A stretch of DNA of 47,635 nucleotides from an uncultured Acetobacteraceae bacterium (GTDB taxonomy: Bacteria; Pseudomonadota; Alphaproteobacteria; Acetobacterales; Acetobacteraceae): positions 1 through 47,635 of the forward strand of contig CAXTPV010000002.1 of NCBI GenBank assembly GCA_964246135.1, given 5' to 3'. The notes below the pieces were generated by a model. The model had not been told where the DNA came from. It saw nothing but the letters and a program-made list of their open reading frames with translations, and ran no database searches. The position numbers and the translations under genes are program-made. Shown piece after piece: positions 16,093 to 44,364 of the stretch; the first letter of the stretch is position 1; every line of letters starts with the position of its first letter.

Positions 16093-19125
<3,033 letters not shown>

Positions 19126-19277
19126 CACCATCCGCGCGAAGCAGGTGGCGTGTCAATCGCCACCCACTCGGTGTCAGGCATCCGGCGTAGGCACTTCCTT
19201 CACATTCTGCGTGTACTTCCACAGGCGTCGCCGCGCGGGCGACCTCCGACCACGTGCGCAGTGATGGGATCAACTGC

Positions 19278-23234: not shown

Positions 23235-23691
23235 GGTTGGAAAGTGAACGCCCTGCCGCCTGCGTGCAACGCTGGCAGCGCTGCCGGGGAGGGGGTGGAC
23301 GAGGTCGCCCTGGTGGCCGGCGCAGCTGGCATCAACGGGCATTTCCTGGCACGCTGAGCCCTAATCCGGAAGCGGGAGCCGCGGCCGTCCGCCGGCGCGA
23401 AGTCGAGGGTGTGGCAACCATAACGGTCGACGTGGGGGATAAAGCGGCGTCCCAGACTGCTATGCTGGCGGGCCGGGACACCACGCTCGTGTTCCCCCCC
23501 CCCCAGCCAGCCGGCGCAACCCGGCCTCACGGCCAACGGCCGGATGCTGGAGAACCTTCTTTTATAGCTTGCGCGAAGCGGGTGCGCCGCCTGAGCGTGT
23601 CGTTTGCCACCGAACTTCGACGACACCCATGAGGACACGCCCTGCCGCACGATCTCCGCGGGAAGCCGCGCATCCTACCTTTCGGCGGCCG

Positions 23692-26823: not shown

Positions 26824-27501
26824 TCACGCACCCACGTTCTGCCGCAACACTTGGACCTCGGTGAGGCACGCGATGTCGGTCGCGCCCCGGCGATCAAGCC
26901 GACTGACAAACTCGTTGATCTCTTGGTCAGGTTCTCCGCTCCGAAACACGAGGTCTCGTGAGGTCAGGCGCGTCCGGTCGAGCAGGAACACGGGCGCGAG
27001 CGCAATGCCGGGAAGCGATGTGCCAGGGTCTCTCGGCAAGGGCAGGATCACGTCGCCCCACCAGCACGCCGCCTGTGCCGCCGCGCCACCCAGCGCGATC
27101 GCCGCCTGGGTTGCCTGCAACCGCGACAGCAGTTTGGCATACGTCCCGGCCAGCACGCGGTCATTGCTGCCAACGCAGGTCACGTAGCGGCCTTGCGCGA
27201 CCTCCAGGCCCCAGTTCAACAGCGGCACGCGCAGGTCGAAGGGCTCCGGATAGTCCCAGTTGTGCAGCGTCAGGCTGGCGCCCTCGTCCAGCAGCAACAT
27301 GTCCTTGGTCGCATGCCGCACGGCCTGCATGTCGGTGATCGAGAATCGCTGCAGCATCGCATGCAGCCGCAACCCGCCATGGGACTGGCTCCCCGTTGCC
27401 GAGGGGGCCTGGCCAAGCAGCGAGAACAGGCATTGCGCAAAGCAGGGAAGCTCGGCGGTGTCGTAAAGCGTGACGATGACATCAATTCCCTCTGGCGTCA
27501 T
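26824..27501 (-). CDS. Glycosyltransferase-like protein (degenerate GT-A/GT2 fold), last gene of the glycan cluster
   Basis: MTPEGIDVIVTLYDTAELPCFAQCLFSLLGQ... resembles a GT2 N-terminus. The usual DxD position reads VGSNDRV. The ATG shares one base with the stop of the upstream gene (TGATG). It is the C-terminal part of ORF 26824..27735. Confidence 0.6.
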   Translation of the reverse strand: MTPEGIDVIVTLYDTAELPCFAQCLFSLLGQAPSATGSQSHGGLRLHAMLQRFSITDMQAVRHATKDMLLLDEGASLTLHNWDYPEPFDLRVPLLNWGLEVAQGRYVTCVGSNDRVLAGTYAKLLSRLQATQAAIALGGAAAQAACWWGDVILPLPRDPGTSLPGIALAPVFLLDRTRLTSRDLVFRSGEPDQEINEFVSRLDRRGATDIACLTEVQVLRQNVGA

Positions 27502-29282
27502 CAAGCAATGCCCGCCTGCAAGCGCAGGCAGTCGAGAACGTCGGTGCGGCGCCAGGCTTCCCTTACGGCGGGCAGTTCCGGTGCGTCCGGCGCGCCGACC
27601 CCACGCAGCAGCGCGGTGAAGTGGGCCACGGCGGGCGCGTCCCCCCACTTCGAAGCCAGCAGCAGCCCAGCCGCCGGCTTCAGCTCCGGCGCCGGCGCGG
27701 CGCCGACCCCTGCCGAGAACAAAGCACGTGGGCATTGCAGCACGGACAAGCCGAGCGCGCGCGCGCGCCAGGACAGATCGATGTCGGCCAGCCAGGCGTC
27801 GAGGCGCTCATCAAAGCCGCCCGTCGCCTTGAACAGGGTGCGCGGGATCGCGACCCCCGGACCGCCTGCCCACTCGATGCTGAAATCCTCAAGACCGACC
27901 CGCCTCGGTGCCGTGTTCGGAACGGTTTCGACCTGCATCAGCGCCCGACCGCCATGCGCGTCTGACATGCGCAGCAGCGCCGCGCCGCTGCCGGGATGCA
28001 GCAGTCCCGGCGCGTCGAGCAACAGCACCAGGTCCGCGCCAGCATCAAAGCCGGCGCGCAACGCAAGGTTGCGGTCGGAGGTGTCCGACGCGGGACTGCC
28101 GCCGCGAGCTGGCATCCTGATGCGTTCGCCATCTGCGCCGGGCGGCAGGCCCAGCAACGCCATCTCGACACTTCGGGCCAGGGGACCTGATCCCCCCGCC
28201 TCGCCGCGCAACACGATGGCAAGGCGCCTCCCAGGCGCGATCGCGTCGCCCAAAGGCTGTCGCCACAGGACGTGCAGAACACGGCGTGGTCGTGGTGGCG
28301 GCGACGTAATGAGCGGGTTGTCTTCGACCGCGCGAATGACGCCGCGAGATTCGGACAGCCTGACCAGGCGGCGCGACAGGAAGCGATCCAGCGCCTCGCT
28401 GCTCGGCACCGCCGTCACGTGGCCCTGCTCGTGCAATTCGCCACGCGCGGTGAGCTTCATCCAGTCGTAGCCGGCCTGCTCGCAGATGTGGAAATACAGC
28501 CGCTCGATGCAGTGCGCCAGCGTGCCGTCGGTCTGGCCGCGCTCTTCGGGGAAGTCGCGCGCGGCAAGGCCGAGATCGAGCAACGGCCGGAGCGCTGCGC
28601 TGCGCGCCCAGAACATCGAGCCGGAGGGAAAGTCGAGCGGCGCCCGGGGCGGCAGCGCAAAACCCATCCGCCCCGCCAATGCCTCGGCCTCTCGATGGTT
28701 CTGGCCCCAGCGGATCCAGGGGCGAAGCTCGTCGATATGCTGCGGCGCGAGCATTCCAAGCCGCGGCATGCGTGCGAACACCTCGAAAACCCCGCGCACG
28801 GTCTCTGGAGAACCGAGCAAAGTGTCCAACAGGTAGCCGCGCCATCCGACCAGGCGGGAATCGTGGGGCGACTGCTTGGTATGCAGGTGCAGCACGTATT
28901 CGTAACGATCGTGCACGGAGGCGAAACCGACCACCTTGGGCGCGACATCGCGCCCGCGATTTGGCACCACCCGGGTCTCGACCATACCCGGCGCCCAGTT
29001 CGCAAAGCAGGCCAGCACGGCCACCTGCTTTGCCTCGGTGTCCGTGCTGACAAAGAGGTCGGCGCGAAAAGGTATGTTGTCGAGATAGGCGCGAAACTCG
29101 TGCAGCAGCTCGACGTGGAAGGCATGCAGAACGACGGCGACGGAGGGTACCCGTGCCGGTGCCGAATAGCCAAGTGGCAGTTCGAGGCTGAACTCCTGCT
29201 CCAGCGGATAGAGGGACTCCCGCCGCACGATGTGCTCGCCTCGACGCGCTCTGACAATGGGCGTTCCCGACAGGCCAGCCAT
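27501..29282 (-). CDS. Fusion protein: rhamnan-synthesis-F (RgpF)-like domain plus C-terminal GT2-like domain
   Basis: The RgpF-like half reads VAVVLHAFHVELLHEFRAYLDNIPFRADLFVSTDTE...NRGRDVAPKVVGF...YEYVLHLHTKQSPH...FPSGSMFWARSAAL...GTLAHCIERL. The C-terminal half reads LLLDAPGLLHPG...GGFDERLDAWLADIDLSWRA. The ATG at 29282 overlaps the upstream stop by 1 nt. Confidence 0.8.
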   Translation of the reverse strand: MAGLSGTPIVRARRGEHIVRRESLYPLEQEFSLELPLGYSAPARVPSVAVVLHAFHVELLHEFRAYLDNIPFRADLFVSTDTEAKQVAVLACFANWAPGMVETRVVPNRGRDVAPKVVGFASVHDRYEYVLHLHTKQSPHDSRLVGWRGYLLDTLLGSPETVRGVFEVFARMPRLGMLAPQHIDELRPWIRWGQNHREAEALAGRMGFALPPRAPLDFPSGSMFWARSAALRPLLDLGLAARDFPEERGQTDGTLAHCIERLYFHICEQAGYDWMKLTARGELHEQGHVTAVPSSEALDRFLSRRLVRLSESRGVIRAVEDNPLITSPPPRPRRVLHVLWRQPLGDAIAPGRRLAIVLRGEAGGSGPLARSVEMALLGLPPGADGERIRMPARGGSPASDTSDRNLALRAGFDAGADLVLLLDAPGLLHPGSGAALLRMSDAHGGRALMQVETVPNTAPRRVGLEDFSIEWAGGPGVAIPRTLFKATGGFDERLDAWLADIDLSWRARALGLSVLQCPRALFSAGVGAAPAPELKPAAGLLLASKWGDAPAVAHFTALLRGVGAPDAPELPAVREAWRRTDVLDCLRLQAGIA

Positions 29283-30085
29283 CACTGGCGGCTCACTCCG
29301 AGAAAGCTCCGCACCTGCCGCCATCCGACCGTGCGGCGCTGCGGGTAGGCGACCACGACATCGTGGTGATCGTCCCAGGCACGGGGATGGTAGGCCGCCA
29401 TGCGCAACCCGCAGGCCGTCAGGGTCGCGCCAAGCCACGCCTGGTCGATCAGCGAGATGCCGTAATGCTCGTTACTGAGCGCGACGCCGTAGTCGGGACC
29501 GCCACCATAATCGCGATAGCCGAAACCCGTGCGTTCGTAATCATCGATCACGCCTGCCGGGTCGCCGTCGGCGAGGCCGTACCCGATCTCGCGCAGTCGC
29601 GGGATGATGCCGGGGCCATGCGACGATGCCACCAGCACGGAACGTCGGGTCATGTGTCGCGCCATCGCCGCCAGGAACAGCTTCACCTGCCGCGCCGGCA
29701 GGTGGGTGATCAATGAGCCGACCCAGATCAGATCATAGGTTTCCCCCAGCCTCAAGGTGGTGAAATCGCGCACCGACAACGCCGGCCGCACGCCAAGCCG
29801 GGCGGCGCAGAACGCGATGCCATCGGCGTCGAGGTCGCTCGCGGTGATGGTGGCGCCTGGAAACCGTGCCCGCAGCACCCGCGTCACGCGTCCGAACCCG
29901 CTCGGAAGATCAAGAATGCTGCGTGGTAAGGCGCCGTCCAGCGCCTGCTCGATCACGCGCAACGCCGATAGGCCCACCGAGGCATAGTGAAAATGGTCAT
30001 CGTCCCTGAACATCTTGTCGGCATCGTCAACCGATCGGTCCATCGTGGGCAAGGGAAAGCCCACCGGCAGGATAAGTTGATGCAT
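29282..30085 (-). CDS. Class I SAM-dependent methyltransferase
   Basis: ILDLPSGFGRVTRVLRARFPGATITASDLDADGIAFC...YDLIWVGSLITHL matches motifs I-III. The ATG at 30085 has GAGGG upstream. The ORF-track start at 30130 is a TTG that overlaps the upstream gene. Confidence 0.8.
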   Translation of the reverse strand: MHQLILPVGFPLPTMDRSVDDADKMFRDDDHFHYASVGLSALRVIEQALDGALPRSILDLPSGFGRVTRVLRARFPGATITASDLDADGIAFCAARLGVRPALSVRDFTTLRLGETYDLIWVGSLITHLPARQVKLFLAAMARHMTRRSVLVASSHGPGIIPRLREIGYGLADGDPAGVIDDYERTGFGYRDYGGGPDYGVALSNEHYGISLIDQAWLGATLTACGLRMAAYHPRAWDDHHDVVVAYPQRRTVGWRQVRSFLGVSRQ

Positions 30086-30098
30086 GCGTCTGACGCCC

Positions 30099-31604
30099 TC
30101 AGCCGGCGCGCCGTGACGCTGGCACGGCAATCGCTGGTGCCGGCTCGACCGTCATCACAGTCTTCCCAAAGAACAGCATCACCGAGAGGTAGCGCCAGTC
30201 GAGGCCACCTAGCTCGGCATCAGAACGACGCCGATAAATACCAGGGTCGAACTTCCAAGCCCCATTGGCGAGCATCGGGACGGGGGCGTTCCGCCAGACC
30301 ATTGCCGGACCCGGCGAACGTCCCGAAGCCCATAGCGCATCGCGGGTGGCGATGGTGGAGGCAATCAGCGCTCGGTCATGCAGGAGGTCGGGCAACCGCC
30401 AGCAAAACACTATCAGCAACGGCACCGTAAGCAGCAAAGCGCGGGTCCGCTGTGCCATCATGCTCGGCCAGGCCTGGGCGAAACTGTAGACAGCGAGCAC
30501 GCCCAGGCAGGTGCGAAAAGTCTCGTGACGCTCGCAGCAATCGTCGCCGAACTGCCGGTAGGCGAGCACGATCGATCCGTAGCTGGCGAGCAGCAGGGCC
30601 GTACCACGCAGCAGCGCCTCGAGGACGGTCGGCCCCAGGCGCGTCTCCGTCATGCCAGGTCGGAAGCCAAGGAACAGCAGCAGCTTGACCGCGAGACCGG
30701 CGGCAACGTTCCAGCCACCGCCAAGCCTGATTGCTGCCAATTCGCGCAGATCATCCGGTCCTGACACAACGAGACTCGCGCCGAGCCTGCCGATAGTCGG
30801 ACTGCCATGCCGGAGCACATCCACGTTGCTGCCGACCCGATGCAGTGCCGTCACCATCGCGACGAAGGCGACGGAGGCGGCAGCGCTTGCCCACACAAAC
30901 CAGCGTAGGCGCACTTGGCCGCGCGCGATACCGTGCGCAACCAGAAGCAGCCCCGCGTCGATCGCGACCACCATCGCGCCCAGCTCCGCGCACCATGCCG
31001 CAACGACCAGCACACCACCGAGCGCCCAGCTCCGCGATGGATGGTCGCGTTTCATCAGGCAGGCGCTGCCGAGCGCGGTGATCCCGAGCAAGTACGCGGC
31101 GGCGCCAGCTGGCCAGTAGAACATCTCTCCCGGTTTGGCGAGCAGGAGGAACGCCGCAACCAGAGAGGCCGCGATCAGCGCCGGCTCGCGACGAGTGCTC
31201 CTTGCAGCGAAATAGAGGCCGAGCAGGAGAACCGACCAGATGGCGGCAAGAAACGGCAGCGACAGCGGTCGTCCAAGCAGGTTGACAGCGGTGCCATAAC
31301 CAAAAAGCACGAGCTCGGACACCGGACGCGGACTCCAGCCGAGGATCCTGTCCGCGGTCGCATGCCAGCCGGCGACGCGTTGCTCGTGGAATTGCAGGAA
31401 CTCGTCCGGATGCCATTTTCCGAGCGGCAGCAGCGACGCGTAACAGGCGATCATCAGCAACAGCGCCGTGGTCGCACCAGGTATGGCGAGGTATCGGGCG
31501 ACTTGGCGCGTGGGCGTTCGCTTGGCAATGCCGGCTCCGGCCCGGACACTCTCCGCGCTCAATCGGCGCGATCCTCGGGATCGATCGGAGACAGCTTCAT
31601 CCAT
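30099..31604 (-). CDS. Polytopic membrane protein of the glycan cluster (possible GT-C-type transferase or polymerase)
   Basis: About 11-12 hydrophobic segments. The first loop reads LPLGKWHPDEFLQFHEQ (acidic DE motif after TM1). The hydrophilic C-terminal ~90 aa follow. I recognise no family. An alternative start is the TTG at 31562, which overlaps the upstream stop as TTGA. Confidence 0.65.
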   Translation of the reverse strand: MDEAVSDRSRGSRRLSAESVRAGAGIAKRTPTRQVARYLAIPGATTALLLMIACYASLLPLGKWHPDEFLQFHEQRVAGWHATADRILGWSPRPVSELVLFGYGTAVNLLGRPLSLPFLAAIWSVLLLGLYFAARSTRREPALIAASLVAAFLLLAKPGEMFYWPAGAAAYLLGITALGSACLMKRDHPSRSWALGGVLVVAAWCAELGAMVVAIDAGLLLVAHGIARGQVRLRWFVWASAAASVAFVAMVTALHRVGSNVDVLRHGSPTIGRLGASLVVSGPDDLRELAAIRLGGGWNVAAGLAVKLLLFLGFRPGMTETRLGPTVLEALLRGTALLLASYGSIVLAYRQFGDDCCERHETFRTCLGVLAVYSFAQAWPSMMAQRTRALLLTVPLLIVFCWRLPDLLHDRALIASTIATRDALWASGRSPGPAMVWRNAPVPMLANGAWKFDPGIYRRRSDAELGGLDWRYLSVMLFFGKTVMTVEPAPAIAVPASRRAG

Positions 31605-32350
31605 GGATGACGCATGGTCATTTCGACGAACACCGCGTCGTAGGATCGCGCCGTTTCGGTTCGCAGCATGGACGCGCGATGCACCCGGTAGCGGCACAGC
31701 ATCTCCGGAACGAACGCCGCGACGTAGCCCTGCTCGATGAACTTGCACCAGAAATCGTAATCTTCCCAGCCACCCTCGACGTGGCTGTAGCCGCCGACGT
31801 CCCGCCAGGCCCGTCGCGATATCAGTGCCATCGCGTCGATGTAGTTGCCATGGCGCAGCCATCGCGGCTGCCAGACATCGGCGAGGCCGACACCGTGCTT
31901 GGCGCCAAACAACTCATGCTGGGTGTAGGCGGCGGCGGCGGCGCTGGTGGCGATCGCGTGATGCAGCCTGCCGATCGCGCGTGGATAAAGCGCGTTGTCG
32001 GCGTCCAGCACGAACACGTTGGCGCCTTGAGCGTGCAGGAAGCCGGTGTTGCGGGCCTGCGCCAGTCCCTGGTTGCGTCGGTGCCGCAGCAGCTTCACGC
32101 GCGAGAAACGCTCCGAATGCGCCTGCATCCAGTCCCGCGCGACGGCGACTGACGCGTCCTTGGCCGACGCATCGTCAACCACCACGAGTTCGAGCGCGGC
32201 GTGACGCTGCGCCGCGATGGAGTCGAGACATTCAGGAAGGAACTCGGCATAGTTGTACAGGCTGACCGTGACCGTCACGAGGTCGGATGGTGAGGCATCG
32301 TCGCGTGCAGCCTCGAACACGGTCTCAGTCGCGGGCGCAATGTTCGGCAT
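31559..32350 (-). CDS. Glycosyltransferase family 2
   Basis: VTVSLYNYAEFLPECLDSIAAQRHAALELVVVDDASAKD...NQGLAQARNTGF...VFVLDADNALYP is a canonical GT2 (DxD = DAD). There are no TM segments. Confidence 0.85.
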   Translation of the reverse strand: MPNIAPATETVFEAARDDASPSDLVTVTVSLYNYAEFLPECLDSIAAQRHAALELVVVDDASAKDASVAVARDWMQAHSERFSRVKLLRHRRNQGLAQARNTGFLHAQGANVFVLDADNALYPRAIGRLHHAIATSAAAAAYTQHELFGAKHGVGLADVWQPRWLRHGNYIDAMALISRRAWRDVGGYSHVEGGWEDYDFWCKFIEQGYVAAFVPEMLCRYRVHRASMLRTETARSYDAVFVEMTMRHPWMKLSPIDPEDRAD

Positions 32351-32354
32351 TGCC

Positions 32355-35114
32355 TCAGCCGCGCTCCCGGGCGCGATGCCGCGACAGGAACCGCAGCATA
32401 CCAGCGACCGTGTTTCGGGTCTCGAAGGTGGTCGAGATCAAGGCGTTGACGTTGGCGCGCACGCGTTCCGCCTCACGGCCGCCCTCCTCGGTGGTGAGCA
32501 GCCATTCGAGTAGGTCCGGAATGTGTCGTGCGCTCTCCTGCAGGTAGTGTTCGTTGGCAACGAAACTCGGATGCGGCAGGCAGGGGTCTGACACGATCAG
32601 GCTGCCCGAGCACATGCCGATCCGAACCATGCGGTGCCACTCGAAATAGCCGAACTCCTCGCGATGGATGTTCAGCGTGATCTTGCTATGACCCGAAACG
32701 TGCCCGGCGAGCCGGGTCAGCGCGCCGTCCTCGCCTTCACTCCGGATCGGGCCGCGGCCCGGTCGGCGGTTGTAGTTGAAGGTCTCGTAGTCGGCGAAGA
32801 AGGCGGCGTTGCGAGCAAAAAAGCGATCGCGGCGCGCGCTCGACGTGCCAAAGAAGCTGATATCGAGGGGCCTCGCGGCAAACGGCAGGCCGGGATCGAT
32901 GTCACGCTGGGCCGCCGCTGGAAGGACGCCATACAGAGGATGCCGGCGATCCCGCTCGGTGAGCTTGTGCGGCCGCAGACGGGCGCCGGGCAACACGTGC
33001 AGCGCCGCCATGTCAAGGCGCTCGAACAGGTCAGCGGTCTGCGAGCATATATCGAACATGCCCCGCGACATCAGGATGAACGGCAATGCCAGCTGAAACC
33101 AGGTGGTCTGGACCTGCTCGGTGCCGAACATGAAGGCGTCCGACAGCACGTCGTCGCGCACCCAGTCGGAGCCGCGTCCTAGCACGAAGAACTCGTGCGG
33201 TGCCACGAACACGCATACCGGCGGCCGCGTCTCGATCGCGCTGGTCTCGTCCAGCAACTCGACACGAACACCGGCGCTGCGAAGATCGGCTGCCAGGTCC
33301 TCGGCAAGGTCGTCCATGAAGACGTTGCCATGCGTGCTGACATAGATGCCGACATGGCTGACATCTTCGACCAGCGCAGGCAGGTCTTGATCGTCATGCC
33401 GCGAAGGTGGCAGCGCGCGAACGGCATGGTCGAACAGCATGAAGCCGCTCATCAGGCGTGCAAGGTCCTCTGGGTCGACTTTGCCGCGCCCTTCCAGCGC
33501 GCCTGACTGGATGAAGTGCTCGTAGGGGTCGACACCAGCGGCGGCAACGTCTGGGTTGCGGCGCAGGTAGTCCTCGACATCGAACACCTCAAAGCGCCGC
33601 AACCGGGTCACTGCGGCGGCAAGCGTCCACCAGTTCACCTCGCCGACGTAGCGTCCGAAACACTGGATCTGCGGCTTTTCCGGCGGCGGTTCGGCCAGCA
33701 TCTCTTCCGATTGTGACACCTCGGTCTGTTGCGGCGGCTCCACGTAGTCGGGCTCGGGCGGCGGAAGGCCTCTGGTGGACCGTGACAGCAGGCGGCCGAC
33801 GCGTTGAGCACCCACGCCGACCCGCACGAGGCGCGAGCGCCGGGCGGCATCGACGTCGGCGAGCCGGGCGTCGATGTCGATGTCGCGCTGTTGCAGCGCC
33901 GCTTCCCGGGCATCGAGCGCGAGCGCTTGCTGTTCAAGCACGTCACGCGTCGCGGCAAGTTCGGCACGTGCGGCCTCGCGTTCCGCCGCGGCGTCAGCGG
34001 CTCTCGCGTCCCGCCGCAGCATCTCGGCAGCCTGCCAGTCGGCCAGCTTTGTCTCGGCATGGAGTCGTGCGGCGGCTTGGGCCTGGAGCTGTTCGCGTAG
34101 CGGCCGGATGTCTCGCTCGGCCGCCTCGGCACCGAGGCGGCGTTCTCGCTCGGCGACGAAGGCCGCGTTGGCGGCGGCGAGCCAGTCCCCGGTTTCGCCA
34201 AGCTGGCGCGACAGGTCGGCAATGTCCTGCTCAGGCTGATAGGTCTCGGTGCGGGTCCAGGGGAAAACGTTGCGCGCCTCCGGGGTTGACGCAGCAGCGC
34301 GCGCTGTCGCCATGAGCGAGGGCGGCACCACGTCGCGCCCCAGGTTTGCCGTCACCAGCCGCCGAAAATCGGCCGCCTCTTCCGCGGCCGCGTCCTGCCG
34401 AAAGCGTCTCGGCAGACCAAGCAGGTTGGCCAGCAGGTTTTCCGGGTGGATCAGCGACAAGCCGCGTCCATCAGCCCGGCCTGGCTGCGGCAGGGCGTCG
34501 GCGGCAGCGCTGCCGTCGCGCGCGAACACCAAGGTGTTCTGCGCGTACCACCAATCGACATCCGCATTCGCCCAAAGGCTTCCGCGCAAGAAGTCAAAGC
34601 AGGAATAACCTTGGCCACGAAACAGGATGGACCAATATTCCGGCCACTGCTCGTTGACGTGGTGGGTGCCATACTGGAACGGCACCGCGGCGGAGAACAG
34701 CACGGCGTCGCCGAGCGACGCCAACTCCGCAATGAGTGACGGCGCGCGTCCATGCGGCAGATGCTCGGCGACTTCCATGCAGACCACGAGGTCGAAGCTT
34801 GCCCGCGCCCTCGTTCGCAGAATGTCGGGCAGCGCCTGCGTCGCGAGGTCAGAAGCAATGAAGCTGTGGGCGTCAACCAGCAGCGCGTCGCGATCGACGT
34901 AGTCGCCATCAATGCCGATCGCCTCCTCGACCCCGAGATCGAGCCCCGCTCGCATCCAGCTGCCGACGCCACAGCCGACGTCCAGCAGGCGCCGCGGTCG
35001 CAGCAGCGGCACCAGCCTGCCCAGGATGATGCGAGCCGAGATCAGGCTCCGCTCCGCCTGGCCCTCAAAGAAATCCTTGTCGTAGATCGCGGCCGGTGTG
35101 TGTCGGGCCGCCAC
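32355..35114 (-). CDS. Three-part protein: N-terminal class I SAM methyltransferase, ~130-aa Ala/Arg/Glu-rich coiled coil, C-terminal glycosyltransferase-like (CgeB/GT1-like) domain
   Basis: MTase: LLDVGCGVGSWM...FDLVVCMEVAEHLP...HVNEQWPEYW. Coil: REQLQAQAAARLHAETKLADWQAAEMLRRDARAADAAAEREAARAELAATRDVLEQQALALDAREAALQQRDIDIDARL. It also has a YLRRNPDVAAAGVDPYEHFIQSGALEGR motif. The C-terminus reads FGTSSARRDRFF...ITLNIHREEFGYFEWHRMV. The GTG at 35114 lies 2 nt after the upstream stop. The ATG at 35225 would overlap the upstream gene by 110 nt. Confidence 0.75.
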   Translation of the reverse strand: MAARHTPAAIYDKDFFEGQAERSLISARIILGRLVPLLRPRRLLDVGCGVGSWMRAGLDLGVEEAIGIDGDYVDRDALLVDAHSFIASDLATQALPDILRTRARASFDLVVCMEVAEHLPHGRAPSLIAELASLGDAVLFSAAVPFQYGTHHVNEQWPEYWSILFRGQGYSCFDFLRGSLWANADVDWWYAQNTLVFARDGSAAADALPQPGRADGRGLSLIHPENLLANLLGLPRRFRQDAAAEEAADFRRLVTANLGRDVVPPSLMATARAAASTPEARNVFPWTRTETYQPEQDIADLSRQLGETGDWLAAANAAFVAERERRLGAEAAERDIRPLREQLQAQAAARLHAETKLADWQAAEMLRRDARAADAAAEREAARAELAATRDVLEQQALALDAREAALQQRDIDIDARLADVDAARRSRLVRVGVGAQRVGRLLSRSTRGLPPPEPDYVEPPQQTEVSQSEEMLAEPPPEKPQIQCFGRYVGEVNWWTLAAAVTRLRRFEVFDVEDYLRRNPDVAAAGVDPYEHFIQSGALEGRGKVDPEDLARLMSGFMLFDHAVRALPPSRHDDQDLPALVEDVSHVGIYVSTHGNVFMDDLAEDLAADLRSAGVRVELLDETSAIETRPPVCVFVAPHEFFVLGRGSDWVRDDVLSDAFMFGTEQVQTTWFQLALPFILMSRGMFDICSQTADLFERLDMAALHVLPGARLRPHKLTERDRRHPLYGVLPAAAQRDIDPGLPFAARPLDISFFGTSSARRDRFFARNAAFFADYETFNYNRRPGRGPIRSEGEDGALTRLAGHVSGHSKITLNIHREEFGYFEWHRMVRIGMCSGSLIVSDPCLPHPSFVANEHYLQESARHIPDLLEWLLTTEEGGREAERVRANVNALISTTFETRNTVAGMLRFLSRHRARERG

Positions 35115-35115
35115 G

Positions 35116-37896
35116 TCAGGGCTCGCCCAGGAAGGCGCGAATGCGCCGTATGCTCTCGGCCGGGAAGGCGTGCTCCCAGTCGGTCGGCCAGTCCACCTGC
35201 GCGCCGGCAAGTCGGGCGTCGACATCGTCGACGCGCGCCATCGCCTCCACCAGGCCGTCGCAGATCGCGTCGACCGTTGGCGAGACCCCGATCAGGTTGC
35301 TCGAGATCTCGCGCAGCCGTTCGGTGGTCTTGTTGGCGAACACGTTGGTGACCGTCCACATCCCGGCCGACGCCATCTCGATCGGGACTAGGCTCGGATG
35401 CGGCGTCAGCATCAGCGAAAGGCCGACATCGAAACTCGGCATCAGCCGGATGTACTCCTCAAGGCTTGTCTTTGGGACCAGCTCGAGCGGCACGCCCTCG
35501 GCGAGCTCGAGCATGTTGCCGCCGATCGAGCCAATACCGTGAAAAGACCACTCGGCGAGGTTCACGCGTGGGTCGCGTACAACCCGTGCGAGCGCCATCA
35601 TGCCGAGTTCGAACAGGTTGCGGGCGGCGTGCTCCTCGGGTCTGGCGTAGAACAGCAGCCGCCTTTTGCTGCGCATCAACTGGCCGCGAGATGGATGAAA
35701 CTTCTGGATCGCGTTGCTGAACACCGCCGCGTCGGCATCGCCGCCAGCCCGCGCGAAAACACCGATGCCTTGATCGCGAAAGAAGTCGCGCAGCAACTCG
35801 GTCGAAAACAGCGACATCTGGGGCAGCGTGTAGGCCTGCTGGAACAAGGCGCTGATCGAGTTCATCGCCATGAAGTAAGGCTCGTACTCCTGCGCCATGA
35901 ACAGGAAAGGCCCGCCGCGAAGCTGTTGCAGCGTATGATGGGCGATGTGGGCGGCCCAGCAGTTGGTCGCGACGAACTGGTCTTCCGGGTTGACCTCCAC
36001 CGGGACCGTCCGGTCCGCTCGCGCGATCACCTCGACCTCATCGAACAGCGTGGTGATACCAGGATACTTCCCGATCTTGGTTCGCCACTCCCCCATGTTC
36101 CATTCAGTAGGCTCATGGAGAATGATACGCGTATGATAGCCCTCGCGCTTCAGTCGAAGTGCCAGGCTGAACATCCCGATGTAGCCGCCAAAGACATAGT
36201 TGAAATCGATCGTCGCGAGCAGCAGGTTCACCCGCTTGGGGTGCTCATCTGACACGTCAAGCGTAAGCGGCAGGATGTTGCGATGAATCCACTTGGTGGT
36301 GCCATACTCCAATGCTGGAATGCTGCGCCGCGGCGCCTCCATGCTGGCAGGCAGCGGCGTGACGGCGTCAGACGGCGTAAGCGTCAGTTTGCCGGCGGCA
36401 ACGACGGCGTTGAGCAGGCGCGCTCCGGGGTTCTTGACTTGCAACCGGACAAGGTCGCGCTGTTTGCGTCGCAGCGCGTAGTTACGCAGACGCGTTCCGG
36501 CGATCGACCAGAGCAACATTCCTTCGAGGTTGAGCGTCGGCCGGCCGGTACGCACCGCCGCGATCTTTTGGTCAAGTGCGGCTCGAAACGAGGTCTCGAA
36601 TCGTGAGAAGCGCTGCAGGACAACTTTCCGTTCGGCCGGCAGTTGCGGGTTCCGCAGCAGCAACGTGCGCGCCAGCATCACCTTCTGCAACACGAACTTG
36701 TAGTCGTCGAGTGACTGCTTCAGCAGCATCGTGGCCGTCGCCGCCATTCGGCGGCGGTTCGGCGCGGCGCGCAGGACTTGCCGCAGCGCTGACAGCATAC
36801 CGGGCCATTTGTTGTAGTTGTGACCGATCACGCCGCCCGTGTGCTGAACATAGTCGTAGAGAGGGGCATCCACGTATCCGATGCCGCCACGCAGCAACGC
36901 GACCAAGCCAATCCAGTGATCATGGAAGGCAGGACCGACCTGTTTCGGGAACGGCAGCAAATCGGGCAGCAGCGATGCACGGATCATGCTGGCAGCACCG
37001 GTAATGGTGTTGGCAACCATCAGCGTCGACAGGTCCGTGTAGTTGTTACGCCGTCTGGCCCAGAACGTCTCCGACCGGACTCCACCATTCGCGTCGACCA
37101 CGCGCGCGTCGCTGTAGACGAGCTGGATGCGGTCGGTAAAACCGTCGAGCAATGCCCGCAATTTGTCCGGGCGCCAGACGTCATCCTGGTCACAAAGGGC
37201 GATGTAGTCAGCATCGGTCGGCGCGCGCCGCAACGCCTGTTCGAAATTGTCGTAGAAGTGCAGGCGGGCGCGGTTCTGGAAGAACATGAAGCGTCGGTCG
37301 TGCTTGACCATCATGCGCACGCGGTCGTAATGCTCGTTGCTGGTGTCGTCGTCGGAGATGATGCAGACCCAGTTCGCGTGCGTCTGCGCCTGGATCGAGG
37401 CAATCTGTGCCTGGAACAGGTCGGCGGGTGGATCAAACATTGCCATGCAGATCGCGATACGCGGTCCGTCCGCCGGCCACGTCACCGCGGTCGGTTGCAC
37501 GCCGTCCCCGGTCAGCAAGCGGATCGTGCCAAGCAGGCGCTCGATCACCTTGCCACGCGTCAGCGTGGCTCGGAGCCACAAAGCGACATCGCGATCGCGA
37601 CCGGGCGATGCGAACGGCACCAGCCCTTCAAAGCCACTCAGCAGGCTGTTGCCGCTGCTGTCTTGTCCGGGACACTTGTCGACGAACACATCGAGGCGAC
37701 CCCAGGAGTGGTTAGCGATCGACGTCGCGACGCCATCAACGACGATCTCCAGACCGGCGAGCTGGTCGTCGGGCGAATAGCACCACCCGCGCACCGGCAG
37801 CATCGCCCCCTTGCCCACAAGCATCGTGTCGGGCAGCGCCTCATCGAGACCGTGGGCAAACGGCGCCTGGGTGATGCCGGGTGAGAAGTCGTCCAT
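35116..37896 (-). CDS. Bifunctional glycosyltransferase: unknown N-terminal domain, GT2 (rhamnosyltransferase-like) domain, WsaF-like GT-B C-terminal domain
   Basis: GT2: RIAICMAMFDPPADLFQAQIASIQAQTHANWVCIISDDDT...YIALCDQDDVWRPDKL. The C-terminal ~370 aa read VNLLLATIDFNYVFGGYIGMFSLALRLKREGY...FMAQEYEPYF...LLFYARPEEHAARNLFELG...SLVPIEMASAG, which resembles WsaF-type rhamnosyltransferases. This is the first gene of the cluster. Confidence 0.8.
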   Translation of the reverse strand: MDDFSPGITQAPFAHGLDEALPDTMLVGKGAMLPVRGWCYSPDDQLAGLEIVVDGVATSIANHSWGRLDVFVDKCPGQDSSGNSLLSGFEGLVPFASPGRDRDVALWLRATLTRGKVIERLLGTIRLLTGDGVQPTAVTWPADGPRIAICMAMFDPPADLFQAQIASIQAQTHANWVCIISDDDTSNEHYDRVRMMVKHDRRFMFFQNRARLHFYDNFEQALRRAPTDADYIALCDQDDVWRPDKLRALLDGFTDRIQLVYSDARVVDANGGVRSETFWARRRNNYTDLSTLMVANTITGAASMIRASLLPDLLPFPKQVGPAFHDHWIGLVALLRGGIGYVDAPLYDYVQHTGGVIGHNYNKWPGMLSALRQVLRAAPNRRRMAATATMLLKQSLDDYKFVLQKVMLARTLLLRNPQLPAERKVVLQRFSRFETSFRAALDQKIAAVRTGRPTLNLEGMLLWSIAGTRLRNYALRRKQRDLVRLQVKNPGARLLNAVVAAGKLTLTPSDAVTPLPASMEAPRRSIPALEYGTTKWIHRNILPLTLDVSDEHPKRVNLLLATIDFNYVFGGYIGMFSLALRLKREGYHTRIILHEPTEWNMGEWRTKIGKYPGITTLFDEVEVIARADRTVPVEVNPEDQFVATNCWAAHIAHHTLQQLRGGPFLFMAQEYEPYFMAMNSISALFQQAYTLPQMSLFSTELLRDFFRDQGIGVFARAGGDADAAVFSNAIQKFHPSRGQLMRSKRRLLFYARPEEHAARNLFELGMMALARVVRDPRVNLAEWSFHGIGSIGGNMLELAEGVPLELVPKTSLEEYIRLMPSFDVGLSLMLTPHPSLVPIEMASAGMWTVTNVFANKTTERLREISSNLIGVSPTVDAICDGLVEAMARVDDVDARLAGAQVDWPTDWEHAFPAESIRRIRAFLGEP

Positions 37897-38206
37897 CAGT
37901 TCCTGCCGCGCCGATGCGGGGCCTGGATCGGCCCGGCCATACCGATGCCTTGCCCAAAGCGAGTCCGAGCCGGGAGGGATAGCGGCGGTGAGGGATCGTT
38001 CATGCCAATGCCAGAGCTACGACGTGCGCGGCACAGTTGCCATACCGGGCCGCCGGGCGGAAGCGCCCCGGTTGCTTCCTCGTCCCGCCTGGCCATTCCG
38101 ACCCAACGCTCGCGCGCGTCAGAAATCGGCCTTCCAACGCTTCCGGCACCGGCCTATCCATCGTCGGCGAGCCCCCGCCGCGCAAGGACAGCTCCGGACC
38201 ATCAGC

Positions 38207-39409
38207 ATGGATCTCATCGCCGCCCGCCTCAACCGTATCAGCCCCAGTCAGACCATCGCGATCAGCGCCCACGCACGTGCGCTGAAGGCGGCGGGTCGCG
38301 ACGTCATCAGCCTGTCGGCCGGCGAGCCCGACTTCGACACCCCCGACAACATCAAGGACGCCGCCCGGCGCGCGATCGCCGCCAATGACACCAGATACAC
38401 CGATGTCGGCGGCACGCCGGCGCTCAAGCGCGCCATCATCGACAAGTTCCAGCGCGATTCCGGGCTCGACTACCGTTCAGACGAGATCATCGTGTCGACC
38501 GGCGCCAAGCAGGTCATCTTCAACGCCCTGCTGGCAACGCTTGAGCCCGGTGACGAGGTGGTCATTCCCGCGCCCGGCTGGGTCAGCTACCCCGACATCG
38601 TGTCGCTGGCCGACGGCACCCCGGTGATCGTCCCATGCGGCCCCAACGCCAGCTTCAAACTACGCGCCGAGCAGTTGGAGGATGCGATCACCCCGCGCAC
38701 CAAGTGGCTGATCCTGAACAGCCCCAACAACCCGACCGGTAGCGCCTACACCGCCGACGATCTCCGCCCGCTCTGCGACGTGCTGCTGGCCCACCCGCAG
38801 GTCTGGGTGATGGCAGACGACATCTACGAGAAGCTGGTCTATGACGGCATCAAGGCGGTGACGGTGGCGCAAATCGAGCCCCGCCTGCGCGACCGCACCC
38901 TGACGCTGAACGGCGTCTCCAAGGCCTACGCGATGACCGGCTGGCGGATCGGCTATGCTGGCGCGCCGGCGGCGCTCACTCGCGCCATGGACAAGCTGCA
39001 GAGCCAGTCCACCTCCAGCCCGTCCTCGATCAGCCAGGCCGCGGCGGTCGAGGCGCTGTCGGGACCGCAGGACAGCGTCGCCGCCATGGCGCGTGTCTAC
39101 CAGGCGCGACGAGACCTGGTGGTCGGCGCGCTGAACCGGATGCCGGGCATCACCTGCCACCAGCCCGACGGCGCGTTCTACGTCTATCCCTCGATGCAGG
39201 GGGTGATCGGCAAGCGCTCGCCGTCCGGCACGGTGATCGAAACCGACGAGCAGTTCGCGGTCGCCCTGCTCGAGGCCGAGGGCGTCGCGACCGTGCACGG
39301 CAGCGCCTTCATGTTCCCCGGGCACTTCCGGATCAGCTACGCACTCGACACCCCGAGCCTGGAGCGCGCCTGCGACCGCATCGCGCGGTTCTGCCGGAGC
39401 CTGTCCTGA
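38207..39409 (+). CDS. Aspartate/aromatic aminotransferase (class I PLP fold)
   Basis: MDLIAARLNRISPSQTIAISAHARALKAAGRDVISLSAGEPDFDTP...LNSPNNPTG...NGVSKAYAMTGWRIGY (PLP-Lys in SKAY). The start is residue 133 of ORF 37811..39409. Confidence 0.9.
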   Translation: MDLIAARLNRISPSQTIAISAHARALKAAGRDVISLSAGEPDFDTPDNIKDAARRAIAANDTRYTDVGGTPALKRAIIDKFQRDSGLDYRSDEIIVSTGAKQVIFNALLATLEPGDEVVIPAPGWVSYPDIVSLADGTPVIVPCGPNASFKLRAEQLEDAITPRTKWLILNSPNNPTGSAYTADDLRPLCDVLLAHPQVWVMADDIYEKLVYDGIKAVTVAQIEPRLRDRTLTLNGVSKAYAMTGWRIGYAGAPAALTRAMDKLQSQSTSSPSSISQAAAVEALSGPQDSVAAMARVYQARRDLVVGALNRMPGITCHQPDGAFYVYPSMQGVIGKRSPSGTVIETDEQFAVALLEAEGVATVHGSAFMFPGHFRISYALDTPSLERACDRIARFCRSLS

Positions 39410-39433
39410 ACCTGCGCCGGGTGCGGCCCTGAC

Positions 39434-40630
39434 ATGATCCGCCCGCGCCTGGCCGGCGGCGAGATCGCGGCCACCATCGCGACCGCCGCCCGCGCCCGCG
39501 CGCTCCGCGCCGAGGGCCACGACGTCATATCGCTCGCGATCGGCGAACCCGACCTGCCGACGCCCCCGCACATCCTGGACGCGATGGACGCGGCGGCGCG
39601 CCGGGGCGAGACCACCTACACGCCGATCAGCGGCACACAGGCGCTACGCGACGCGGTCCGGCGCAAGTTCGCCCGCGAGAACGGCATTGAGGCCGCGCCC
39701 GACGAGGTCATCGTCACCAACGGCAGCAAGCAGGCGATCCAGGCGGCGTTCGCCGCCACCCTGGCGCCGGGCGACGAGGTCGTGATCCCGAGCCCCTACT
39801 GGGCGAGCTACCCGCTGATCGCGCGCATGCTCGGTGGCGTGCCGGTGTTCGTGCCTTGTGCGCCTGAGCACGGATTCCGCCCGGACCCCGACGCGATCGG
39901 CCGCGCGATCACGCCACGCACGCGCTGGGTGGTGCTGAACTTCCCGAACAACCCGACCGGCGCGGTCTGCGACGCGGACCGGCTCGCCGCCATCGCCGCG
40001 GTCCTCGCCCGCCACCCGGATGTCTGGATTCTGTCCGACGACATCTACGAGCACCTAATCCATGACCTCACGCCGCACGCGACGCTCGCCGCCATCGCGC
40101 CCGGCCTGCGCGACCGCGTGCTGACCGTCAACGGGGTGTCGAAATCCTACGCGATGACCGGCTTTCGCATCGGCTACGCGACCGGCCCCGCGCCGCTGAT
40201 CGCCGCGATGGCGGCGGTGCAGGGCAACACCACGTCCGGCGCCAGCGCGCCCGGTCAGGCCGCCGCGGTGGCGGCGCTTGACGGTCCGCAGCAGGCACGC
40301 GACGCGATGCGCGCCCGCTTTGCCGCAAGGCGCGACCTGGCCCTCGATCGCCTCGCCGCCGCTTCCGGCTTGCGCTGCACCCGTCCGGAGGGTGCGTTCT
40401 ACCTGTTCCCCTCCGCTGACGGTCTGATCGGCCATCGCAGCGCCGGTGGCCGGCGACTCGCGACCGACGCCGACCTCGCGGACGCCATCCTGGAAGAGGC
40501 GCATGTCGCGGTGGTCGCCGGTGCCGCGTTTGGCGCGAGCCCCCATCTCCGCCTCAGCATCGCCGCCGGCGAGGCGGACATCAAAGCCGCCTGCACCAGG
40601 ATCGTCCGCTTCTGCCAGGGCTGCGCGTGA
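39434..40630 (+). CDS. Second class I aminotransferase (paralogue of the preceding gene)
   Basis: VISLAIGEPDLPTP...LNFPNNPTG...NGVSKSYAMTGFRIGY. It starts 25 nt after the first aminotransferase, and its stop overlaps the next gene's start (GTGA). Confidence 0.85.
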   Translation: MIRPRLAGGEIAATIATAARARALRAEGHDVISLAIGEPDLPTPPHILDAMDAAARRGETTYTPISGTQALRDAVRRKFARENGIEAAPDEVIVTNGSKQAIQAAFAATLAPGDEVVIPSPYWASYPLIARMLGGVPVFVPCAPEHGFRPDPDAIGRAITPRTRWVVLNFPNNPTGAVCDADRLAAIAAVLARHPDVWILSDDIYEHLIHDLTPHATLAAIAPGLRDRVLTVNGVSKSYAMTGFRIGYATGPAPLIAAMAAVQGNTTSGASAPGQAAAVAALDGPQQARDAMRARFAARRDLALDRLAAASGLRCTRPEGAFYLFPSADGLIGHRSAGGRRLATDADLADAILEEAHVAVVAGAAFGASPHLRLSIAAGEADIKAACTRIVRFCQGCA

Positions 40631-41616
40631 CACCATCGTTGCGCCCGGGCCGCGACGCCGACGGCGACGCCATGCGCGCGCTGATCGGCGCCTGCTGGTC
40701 CGAGCATCCCGGCTGCGTGATGGACCCGGACGAGACCGCCTATCTCCGCGTGCCGGCCTCTTACTACGAAGGGCAGGGCGGCCGGCTGCTGGTGGCCGAG
40801 GACGAGGGCGCCCTCGTCGCGACCATCGCCTGGGTGCCGGCCGCCGATCACGCGCTCGAGCTGAAGGGCCTCTACGTCGCGCCGGCGCATCGCGGCACCG
40901 GCCTCGCCCAAGCCATGCTCGACGCGATCGAGGCGATGGCCCGCGCGCAGGCCGCGTCGCATCTCCTGCTCTGGACCGACACCAGGTTCACCCGGGCGCA
41001 CCGCTTCTACGAGCGTCGTGGCTTCGTCGCCGCCGGCGCGATCCGGACGCTCGGCGACCGCTCGAGCTCGCTCGAATACCCCTACGCCAAGCCGATGCTG
41101 AGGCTCGCGGTCGAGGCGCTCGATGGCGTAGCCGCGGCGTCCGCGGTGCCGGCGCTCGCCGACCTGCTGGTCGCCTGCGTTGACGCCGGCGCCTCGGTGT
41201 CCTTCCTGCCGCCGCTCGACCTCGACGCCGCGCGCGCGTTCTATCGCGGCGTTGCTCGCGATGTCGCCGCCGGCCGCCGCCACCTGTTCGCGGGCTGGCT
41301 GCATGGCACCCTGTCAGGCACGATCCTGCTCGATCCGGCCTGGCAGCAGAACCAGCCGCACCGGGCCGAGATCGCCAAGCTGCTGGTGCATCCCGGCGCC
41401 CGCAGGCGCGGCCTCGGCGATGCGCTGCTCACGGCGGCCGAGATGCGTGCCCACGCGATCGGGCGAACCCTGCTGACGCTCGATACCGCGGATGCGGGGG
41501 CGTCCAGCCTCTATCGGCGCCATGGCTGGATCAGCGTTGGCACCATTCCAGGCTACGCGATCGATGGTGCTGGGCGTCCGCTCGACACCACCATGTTCTG
41601 GCGAGCCTTGGCGTAA
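40627..41616 (+). CDS. Tandem-GNAT N-acetyltransferase (two acetyltransferase domains)
   Basis: Domain 1: LKGLYVAPAHRGTGLAQAMLDAIEAMA...FYERRGF. Domain 2: IAKLLVHPGARRRGLGDALLTAAEMRA...LYRRHGW. Both carry the Q/RxxGxG/A acetyl-CoA motif. The GTG start overlaps the upstream TGA. Confidence 0.8.
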   Translation: MTPSLRPGRDADGDAMRALIGACWSEHPGCVMDPDETAYLRVPASYYEGQGGRLLVAEDEGALVATIAWVPAADHALELKGLYVAPAHRGTGLAQAMLDAIEAMARAQAASHLLLWTDTRFTRAHRFYERRGFVAAGAIRTLGDRSSSLEYPYAKPMLRLAVEALDGVAAASAVPALADLLVACVDAGASVSFLPPLDLDAARAFYRGVARDVAAGRRHLFAGWLHGTLSGTILLDPAWQQNQPHRAEIAKLLVHPGARRRGLGDALLTAAEMRAHAIGRTLLTLDTADAGASSLYRRHGWISVGTIPGYAIDGAGRPLDTTMFWRALA

Positions 41617-43395: not shown

Positions 43396-43412
43396 TGGGC
43401 AGGCGCCCGGCG

Positions 43413-44309: not shown

Positions 44310-44364
44310 CGGCCCTCCTCCTCGGCGGATTGTGACCGCAGCCCCTGGTCTGTAGTCAGTCAGC

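Follow-up and report, generated by a model that had tools for sequence, protein, structure and literature searches.

How does a bacterium build a capped surface polysaccharide from a gene cluster that holds assembly enzymes and, in view, neither an exporter nor a primer or sugar-nucleotide enzyme? This question is raised by a seven-gene glycan operon (positions 26824-37896, minus strand) of an uncultured Acetobacteraceae bacterium, located on contig CAXTPV010000002.1 of assembly GCA_964246135.1. The window analysed here is that one entire contig of 47,635 nucleotides (nt; 47.6 kb), and most of the genome lies outside view. We estimate a probability of about 0.6 that the operon encodes the cytoplasmic polymerase and terminator set for a rhamnose-type, methyl-capped polysaccharide that depends on an ATP-binding cassette (ABC) transporter, and that this set is carried on a mobile five-gene cassette, with the exporter, primer and sugar-nucleotide genes located elsewhere. 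Within this scheme, we infer from the proteins and loci described below which substrates and lipid carrier are used, that the chain receives a methyl cap, that a ruler acts on its length and how the product is exported. The new point appears to be the layout of one protein, g2, in which a predicted methyltransferase, a spacer of variable length and a glycosyltransferase domain of GT-B fold are joined in a single chain.

The seven genes, denoted g1 to g7 in the order of transcription, are one real operon. All seven open reading frames (ORFs) that had been noticed in the sequence-only reading of this DNA, made without database searches, exist, and every junction that it described is seen in the sequence. 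The g6/g7 and g5/g6 pairs overlap by one base in TGATG (27501-27504 and 29280-29284, respectively), g3 and g4 overlap in TTGA (31559-31562), g2 and g3 are separated by 4 nt (32351-32354), and the GTG start of g2 at 35114 lies one base past the g1 stop codon (35116-35118). Thus, five of the six junctions overlap or nearly abut, the remaining g4/g5 gap being 15 nt. The unusual starts of g2 (GTG, 35114) and g4 (TTG, 31562) agree with the independent database gene calls P0001 (919 amino acids, aa) and P0092 (487 aa); AGGAA stands just before the ATG of g1 at 37896. None of the seven reading frames is interrupted, and they are translationally coupled.

The g2 protein and its g3 partner

The N-terminal part of g2 (aa 1-250 of 919; positions 34365-35114, minus strand) is predicted to be a class I S-adenosylmethionine (SAM)-dependent methyltransferase. 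It matches the Pfam family Methyltransf_23 (3e-9), and its SAM motif, D45-x-G47-C-G49-x-G51, is invariant among 27 homologs. Among solved structures, the closest are those of a putative SAM methyltransferase (3e8s, 7e-5) and of a D-glucose O-methyltransferase (6uv6, 8e-4). The protein leaves no room for a kinase domain, which takes up ~220 aa in WbdD and in ORF6 of Klebsiella O7, and shows no sequence match to WbdD. Because there is no space for a kinase and no WbdD match, and because 6uv6 is among the nearest relatives, the cap predicted from g2 is a simple O-methyl group. We propose the N-terminal domain of g2 as the chain terminator, which would place an O-methyl group on the non-reducing end of the glycan, stop elongation and in this way set the chain length.

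The methyltransferase is followed by a spacer (aa 296-481; positions 33672-34229, minus strand) that consists of a predicted helical segment and a Pro-rich linker. The segment of ~135 aa is rich in Ala, Glu, Arg, Leu and Gln, and the spacer includes a run of 94 residues free of Pro and Gly. Across the 27 g2 homologs, the spacer ranges from 132 to 257 aa owing to large indels, and both end domains are highly conserved. Conserved end domains joined by a spacer of variable length are the pattern of coiled-coil terminator proteins (PMC11231755). By analogy, the g2 spacer might serve as a coiled-coil ruler in a terminator-polymerase, the helix keeping the methyltransferase away from a membrane-proximal GT-B domain.

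The assignment of the C-terminal domain (aa 482-919 and the stop codon; positions 32355-33671, minus strand) comes from structure prediction. These 440 residues had no Pfam or PDB sequence match, with only sub-threshold hints in permissive scans, and a search of g2 for GT2 gave no match at any threshold. A first AlphaFold2 model built from 14 close homologs was discarded at a predicted local distance difference test (pLDDT) score of 45; the model based on 45 diverse representatives reached a mean pLDDT of 92.4 and a predicted template-modelling score (pTM) of 0.91. The top Foldseek matches of the latter model were GT-B, GT4-like enzymes, namely BshA, methylmannose-polysaccharide mannosyltransferase, SenB, SdgB and TarM (E-values of 1e-6 to 1e-4, template-modelling scores of 0.45-0.6, ~10% identity). 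Furthermore, 6 of 45 stand-alone relatives of the domain matched Glyco_trans_1_2 (PF13524). The model confirmed the C-terminal domain as a predicted glycosyltransferase of GT-B fold.

The family defined by this domain, hereinafter g2C, is large and widespread. A profile search of a representative library of 1.84 billion proteins, with clusters at 50% identity, retrieved 10,963 clusters at E<=1e-3, of which 618 reached E<=1e-30. The members extend from Alphaproteobacteria to Melainabacteria and Desulfobacterota and are stand-alone proteins of 400-450 aa or domains joined to varied N-termini. Full-length relatives of g2 number ~70 (52-70% identity), those with names belonging to Falsiroseomonas and Acidisoma, both Acetobacteraceae. 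We also noticed that the g2 GT-B domain opens with the motif FDxxxYLxxNPDVxxxGxDPxxHxxxxGxxEGR (aa 511-545; ~33480-33584, minus strand). Some proteins of 1900-2200 aa in the library (P0185, P0191 and P0218) repeat this motif 17-20 times in tandem, and our guess is that it is a module for sugar binding or docking.

The next gene, g3 (31559-32350, minus strand), encodes a soluble 263-aa GT2 glycosyltransferase (Pfam GT2, 5e-27), in agreement with its earlier description as a plain GT2. Its DXD motif, D116-A-D118, is invariant; a look-up of the exact g3 sequence returned no match. In a scan of one genome per species, a GT2 gene of the g3 type was found directly downstream of a g2C-type gene, on the same strand, in 56 of the 60 loci, two of the four exceptions being contig ends, with a median gap of 54 nt between the tblastn ends. 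The pair occurs in Komagataeibacter (about a dozen species), Gluconacetobacter, Acidocella, Mesorhizobium, Methylocella, Caulobacteraceae, Melainabacteria and Desulfobacteraceae. This near-constant adjacency suggests that g3 is the constant functional partner of the g2 C-terminal domain.

The other proteins and the conserved core

The first gene of the operon, g1 (35116-37896, minus strand), encodes a 926-aa double glycosyltransferase, and its reading as a GT2 plus WsaF-like protein was borne out. Behind an N-terminal domain of ~140 aa, the type of which was not assigned, lie a GT2 domain (Pfam GT2, 4e-12; aa 145-312, nt 36961-37464) and a WsaF-type GT-B domain (aa 541-887, nt 35236-36276) that matches both WsaF_N (5e-11, 43.2 bits) and WsaF_C (4e-41, 140.4 bits) against a Pfam cut-off of 27. 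The solved structure of WsaF, 2x0d, aligns with g1 over residues 34-378 (2e-27). In the aligned g1 sequence, all five WsaF residues with a part in dTDP binding or a place beside the reaction centre (Y247, R249, R254, K302 and E333; PMC2943079) are identical. Such proteins are far from rare: 407 relatives were found, and among the 119 others listed, all carry GT2 and 116 carry WsaF_N and WsaF_C as well, the NCBI family being named 'rhamnosyltransferase WsaF family glycosyltransferase'. With the g1-type fusion in 116 listed relatives and ~70 full-length relatives of g2, the label of unusual fusion proteins does not hold. The GT2+WsaF fusion is already common and named, and what seems new is the methyltransferase, variable spacer and GT-B layout of g2.

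The operon ends with g6 and g7. The g6 protein (27501-29282, minus strand; 593 aa) has an N-terminal domain (aa ~47-272) that matches Pfam RgpF at 3e-48 and 165 bits (cut-off 25). The match covers only positions 271-503 of the 503-position profile and thus falls short of the whole profile; judged by this alignment, g6 contains an RgpF-type domain and is not a full-length RgpF. Its C-terminal region was also considered as a GT2 domain, which was rejected at a probability of 2.5% in the hhalign comparison of the family with GT2, so that only the first half of the proposed RgpF+GT2 fusion survived. The region is conserved (g6 is 47-65% identical in its relatives), its fold was not assigned by Pfam, PDB or hhalign, and the PDB search with g6 found no relative. 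The g7 protein (26824-27504, minus strand; 226 aa) appears to have a degenerate GT-A-like core. It has no Pfam family, and the hhalign comparison with GT2 (69%, E of 4e-5, 46 columns over the DXD region) lends weak support to its earlier description as a degenerate glycosyltransferase. The g7 of the window has GSND where most relatives keep D-x-x-D. In locus L008, g6 and g7 are a single 738-aa protein, residues 525-735 of which are 39% identical to g7; this fusion argues for joint action of g6 and g7. The RgpF proteins of L003 (734 aa) and L076 (740 aa) are of matching size, with no separate g7 called, which suggests that they are the same fusion.

Between g3 and g6 lie g4 and g5. The 487-aa g4 protein (30099-31562, minus strand) is polytopic, as had been proposed, with ~9-10 transmembrane helices predicted from hydropathy peaks. 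It has no Pfam family and no PDB relative by sequence, with weak sub-threshold matches to DUF6056 in 4 of 22 family members (best E of 0.0013). The family is rare (23 proteins found); only the window and L013 have it near the module, and in L005 and L007 it is located apart. The N-terminus is basic, and 22 homologs all keep the pair D53-E54 just past the first transmembrane helix, in what is predicted to be the first periplasmic loop. Because the protein is polytopic and has this invariant pair in that loop, a GT-C-like enzyme is a reasonable guess, and g4 would work on the periplasmic side, perhaps in modification of the glycan.

Other membrane proteins accompany related modules. A polytopic family of ~800 aa, with ~8-12 transmembrane segments, a soluble part of ~450 aa and 49-63% identity among members, lies beside the cassette in L001 (4712-7090), L009 (2430-4847), L012 (4504-6984) and L077 (2617-5064), and a polytopic family of ~700 aa occurs in L012 (1570-3630) and L003 (17065-19188). 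Neither family shows sequence relation to g4, and neither is present in the window. A soluble protein of ~700 aa ending in a GT2 domain, likewise without sequence relation to g4 and absent from the window, recurs in L002, L008, L012 and L077.

The g5 protein (29282-30082, minus strand; 266 aa) is a predicted SAM-dependent methyltransferase (Pfam Methyltransf_25, 4e-9; Methyltransf_12, 1e-7) with marginal PDB matches only, which upholds the earlier call of a second methyltransferase; it would add further methyl groups. A methyltransferase of this type lies beside the module in L001, L002, L009, L012, L013, L016 and L017, in varying position and orientation, and methyltransferase genes recognised by Pfam annotation occupy equivalent positions in L076 and L077. 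In L017 and L076 the methyltransferase is located between g3 and g6, as in the window. By this distribution, g4 and g5 are variable add-ons, g5 being a recurrent accessory.

The five remaining genes, g1-g2-g3-g6-g7, are found in the same order in 12 other loci of Acetobacteraceae-type genomes and metagenome-assembled genomes, with g1 displaced in L016. These loci (L001, L002/L015, L003, L008, L009/L014, L012, L013, L016, L017, L019, L076 and L077) were gathered by context look-ups and by a scan of one genome per species. The seven genes form an operon in the window, and the conserved unit comprises five of them. The flanking genes described in the sequence-only reading, a convergent amylase-like gene 6 nt away and a divergent aminotransferase, are present in the window, and neither they nor any other flanking gene has a homolog in any related locus fetched. 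The annotated neighbourhoods of the core loci also differ from one another. Mobile elements are seen near three of them: a Mu-like prophage abuts L003, transposase fragments surround L009, and the module of L077 has a transposase gene ~7 kb upstream.

Base composition points in the same direction, and the lower value estimated by eye in the sequence-only reading proved significant. The G+C content of the module region is 65.5% against 68.9% in the rest of the window, and G+C at third codon positions (GC3) is 0.75-0.82 in the seven genes (mean 0.79) against 0.87 +/- 0.04 in the 27 other genes (Mann-Whitney p=8e-6). In five of the six relatives checked, the module is 0.7-5.7 points below its flanks in G+C. 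We found neither direct or inverted repeats delimiting the module nor a tRNA gene in the window, and a scan of metagenomes for an empty site, with the amylase-like neighbour as the query, retrieved only relatives of <=41% identity and did not reconstruct the insertion point. Because the flanks are not shared, the neighbourhoods differ, insertion sequences or prophage are sometimes adjacent and GC3 is lower, the module behaves as an accessory that was probably transferred, much as had been suspected.

Some features of the operon could be those of a decaying or non-functional remnant without a product in its host: g7 has GSND in place of D-x-x-D, g6 matches half of the RgpF profile, g3 and g6, usually adjacent, are separated by g4 and g5, and no partner genes are in view. 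We consider this reading highly improbable. The seven coupled frames are intact, the catalytic or cofactor motifs of g1, g2, g3 and g5 are invariant, GC3 is typical of coding sequence in all seven genes, a methyltransferase between g3 and g6 recurs in two other loci, and the 50-79% identity kept across the whole family implies selection.

Product, export and the rest of the window

Under the polymerase/terminator scheme, the glycan would grow on an undecaprenyl-diphosphate-linked primer made by enzymes encoded elsewhere, and sugars would be added by g1, by g2C with g3, and by the RgpF-type unit of g6 and g7. The product, presumably methylated, would be rich in 6-deoxyhexose (probably L-rhamnose) and of the O-antigen or capsule type. 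Export would proceed via Wzm/Wzt, and sugar nucleotides would come from rml-type genes, both encoded outside the contig. The core cassette, moved among Acetobacteraceae-type genomes, would build a complete chain or extend a resident one.

The absence of wzm/wzt, wzx/wzy, initiating transferase and rml genes from the window, as stated in the sequence-only reading, was reproduced. No wzm/wzt or rmlA-D was detected by tblastn in the 47.6-kb window, and no transporter, flippase, polymerase or initiating transferase was present among its Pfam-scanned genes. Transporter, primer and precursor genes are often unlinked from assembly genes, and the window is a single contig, so this absence is less notable than had been implied. 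Overall, the earlier interpretation was largely right in spirit and overstated on the unusual fusions and the missing genes.

The likeness to ABC-transporter-dependent pathways that had been read from the RgpF- and WsaF-type enzymes gained support from related loci. In L012, which is 59-72% identical to the window in g1, g2, g3 and g6 and 49% in g7, the region beyond g7 encodes a ~700-aa GT2-containing protein, then ABC_tran and ABC2_membrane proteins (~2 kb from g7) and then a GT4 protein. Among more distant relatives, P0076, which is related to the g2 methyltransferase domain, is encoded in L011 and in L051, two nearly identical loci. On its two sides lie rmlA-D homologs (of the NTP_transferase, dehydratase/epimerase and dTDP_sugar_isom families), wzm/wzt, a Poly_export gene and two genes with RgpF domains, one of them GT2+RgpF. 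P0081 of Acidithiobacillus, in which a methyltransferase is fused to GT1-type domains, adjoins wzm/wzt and a Wzy_C ligase-type gene. In all, wzm/wzt are present in L010, L011 and L051 among the loci of distant g2 relatives. In Ancylobacter (L068), the gene order is rmlABCD, g2C, g3, RgpF.

Several observations weigh against this scheme. Within 10 kb of the module, the window and 11 of the 12 relatives are all devoid of genes for a transporter, a primer or sugar nucleotides, so that the proposed ABC-dependent route draws on one close relative plus distant ones. Even in that close relative, the Wzt protein (L012, 17825-18709) has 294 aa and lacks the C-terminal carbohydrate-binding domain that would read a cap, such as the one by which capped glycans are recognised in E. 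coli O9a; if the glycan is methyl-capped, export may not need cap reading, given this short Wzt. The coiled coil, too, is a proposal: a crude heptad-contrast test of the g2 spacer was not significant (z=1.6, reached by 22 of 300 shuffles). Of the methyltransferase-coiled-coil-glycosyltransferase protein of the sequence-only reading, the two enzymatic ends thus stand, by Pfam for the methyltransferase and by the GT-B model and Foldseek for the glycosyltransferase, and the coiled coil between them is putative.

The donor sugars raise a further difficulty. In the proline-rich WsaF motif PHPSYPPLE, the central Tyr points at rhamnose (PMC2943079). The corresponding motif of g1 is PHPSLVPIE, with Tyr329 replaced by Leu and Pro330 by Val; with the central Tyr lost, the donor sugar of g1 may differ from that of WsaF. 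In Komagataeibacter xylinus (L036, 7017-13029), a stand-alone g2C/g3 pair adjoins manC, the gene for GDP-mannose pyrophosphorylase/isomerase, and two small unassigned genes, with no rml or transporter gene nearby, and the donor of the pair may therefore not be dTDP-rhamnose. Finally, a literature search found no glycan structure or mutant for any member of the module family and no study of the module in Acetobacteraceae.

The general lack of wzm/wzt beside the module could also mean that the glycan is exported in another way, with polytopic proteins (g4 and the ~800-aa and ~700-aa families) acting as flippases, GT-C transferases or ligases. A polytopic protein is very often adjacent to the module (g4 in the window and L013, the ~800-aa family in L001, L009, L012 and L077, the ~700-aa family in L003 and L012), and, like GT-C enzymes, g4 has its invariant Asp-Glu pair in the loop predicted to be the first on the periplasmic side. 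However, these membrane proteins are mutually non-homologous, none of them is constant and none lies within 10 kb in L008 and L076; genes of the g4 family also occur far from any module, and L012 has wzm/wzt in addition to both membrane families. Moreover, it is general knowledge that GT-C-like proteins usually modify the glycan after export (compare PMC11127046). We regard export without Wzm/Wzt as unlikely.

Another explanation is that the product stays in the cytoplasm, either as an intracellular polymethylated polysaccharide or through glycosylation of a cytoplasmic or secreted protein such as flagellin. It would account for the lack of a transporter at almost all loci and for the two methyltransferases of the operon. 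Mycobacteria make intracellular methylmannose and methylglucose polysaccharides, and g2C indeed has a Foldseek match to the methylmannose-polysaccharide mannosyltransferase of M. hassiacum (7qsg, E of 4e-6); the match, however, is at the level of the fold (11% identity) and one among many GT-B enzymes. Similarly, a GH13 (glycoside hydrolase family 13) amylase-like gene ends 6 nt from g7, but this neighbour is not beside any related module. Relatives of g2 and of the g2C/g3 pair are located inside loci with wzm/wzt, rml and Poly_export genes, periplasm-facing membrane proteins accompany the module, and the window has no flagellar or S-layer genes nearby. Collectively, these observations make a cytoplasmic product very unlikely.

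Returning to the polymerase/terminator scheme, a bolder form of it can be put forward only tentatively. The five-gene core could be a self-sufficient plug-in cassette that brings no transporter and reprograms the primer and exporter of its host, resulting in serotype conversion, with g2 as a new methyltransferase-ruler-GT-B terminator-polymerase and with g2C and g3 as representatives of a very large, uncharacterised GT-B/GT2 two-protein system.

The operon is bounded by unrelated genes. The stop codon of g7 is followed, 6 nt on, by the stop codon of the convergent GH13 amylase-like gene. At the other end, the aminotransferase homology begins at aa 132 of a long ORF, which places the start of the divergent aspartate aminotransferase near 38204 and leaves an intergenic region of ~300 nt upstream of g1 (37897-38203). 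This is the presumed promoter region of the operon, assigned by position because no match to the sigma-70 consensus was found in it; three terminator-like matches were recorded, below the shuffled expectation. Beside the operon lie two aspartate-aminotransferase paralogs in tandem (38204-39409 and 39434-40630) and, after them, genes for a double-GNAT acetyltransferase, a cytochrome P450, an alpha/beta hydrolase and a pyridoxal phosphate-dependent decarboxylase, and the entire region 38204-45777 looks like a small-molecule, amino-acid-derived biosynthetic cluster.

Window genes elsewhere include those for TrcR, LpxB, SecDF and ThiC, by which this contig of high G+C (about 69%) is assigned to a Gram-negative alphaproteobacterium. 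Three other envelope-glycan genes, all far from the module, code for an AGE-family protein (GlcNAc 2-epimerase-like, 4319-5470), a membrane O-acyltransferase of the Acyl_transf_3 family (5976-7061) and LpxB (22065-23342). Upstream of thiC, we detected an element resembling a thiamine pyrophosphate (TPP) riboswitch (18961-19126, minus strand), which scored 37.5 bits, below the Rfam gathering score of 54.3 (E of 7.8e-6 in a 501-nt search), and measures 166 nt against a model of 105 positions, probably owing to a long insertion. No RNA family was found at the gathering threshold in the whole window. At the contig end (45800-47635), G+C drops to 0.61-0.65 and there is no convincing ORF.

Comparison with known systems

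The closest parallels to g2 come from terminators with long spacers. In ORF6 of Klebsiella pneumoniae O7 and WbbB of O12, the terminator is placed distally on a long helical spacer and the polymerase glycosyltransferase modules are C-terminal, as proposed for g2 (PMC11231755). In these systems and in the WbdD-WbdA system of Escherichia coli O9a, further glycosyltransferases are separate proteins, as in the operon studied here (PMC11231755, PMC3482155). Relatives of the coiled-coil terminators have been reported in Alphaproteobacteria, including a member from Acetobacteraceae (PMC11231755). In contrast to WbdD, WbbB and ORF6-O7, g2 has a methyltransferase only, without a kinase or a carbohydrate-binding module, and its predicted cap is neither methyl phosphate nor 3-deoxy-D-manno-oct-2-ulosonic acid (Kdo). 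Unlike WbbB and ORF6-O7, it has a single GT-B domain outside Pfam instead of two GT2 modules or GT102/GT103, and would need a separate GT2, g3. The operon also differs from all three systems in having no linked wzm/wzt.

A second parallel is the poly-L-rhamnan of the S-layer of Geobacillus stearothermophilus NRS 2004/3a, which is made by WsaF together with the multidomain protein WsaE, the N-terminal methyltransferase of which caps the chain with O-methyl; g1 and the proposed role of g2 are alike in these respects (PMC2943079, PMC3898925). The Geobacillus slg genes are likewise tightly packed and overlapping, with a G+C content below that of their genome (PMC2943079, PMC3898925). However, WsaE has two GT2 rhamnosyltransferase domains and no long spacer in its description, whereas g2 combines a spacer with one GT-B domain, and WsaF is free-standing, whereas in g1 a GT2 domain precedes it in the same chain. 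Also present in the slg cluster are wzm, wzt, rmlACBD and the genes for WsaP, which is the primer transferase, and for WsaB, an oligosaccharyltransferase; the operon of the window has none of them. Furthermore, the Geobacillus host is Gram-positive and its glycan is attached to protein, unlike the arrangement proposed here.

The pa5455-pa5459 operon of Pseudomonas aeruginosa encodes glycosyltransferases, methyltransferases and a membrane protein. According to PMC3560663, this five-gene operon is needed for a rhamnan O-polysaccharide, the common polysaccharide antigen, and stands apart from the operon with wzm/wzt and the sugar-nucleotide genes. The two P. aeruginosa operons are adjacent, however, the rhamnan consists of D-rhamnose derived from a GDP-sugar, and no terminator-spacer-polymerase fusion is described; the likeness is one of description only. 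With the streptococcal RgpA-F/Gac systems for rhamnan and Lancefield antigen, in which rhamnose is polymerised on a lipid carrier and exported by an ABC transporter, the operon has an RgpF-family domain in common (PMC6802508). Compared with streptococcal Rgp, g6 has only the C-terminal half of the RgpF profile, a different C-terminus and a g7 that is separate or fused, and the operon is without counterparts of RgpA, RgpB, RgpC and RgpD.

The pairing of g2C with g3 points to a large GT-B family that has no name and whose genes almost always stand with a GT2 gene. It offers a handle for the annotation of thousands of proteins now labelled 'hypothetical' or 'methyltransferase domain-containing'. 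A cassette found at many sites without a transporter could also model the spread of surface-glycan diversity in acetic-acid and acidophilic bacteria. The value of these findings lies in annotation and comparative glycobiology; the understanding of the pathway class is unchanged, and no new principle is involved. By analogy, g2 appears to resemble both the ORF6-O7/WbbB/WbdD group and the WsaE group and to be a member of neither family. If the proposed function is correct, g2 would represent a fourth layout among the known terminator-ruler-polymerase proteins that set chain length, one that joins a lone methyltransferase, through a spacer of variable length, to a GT-B module dependent on a separate GT2.

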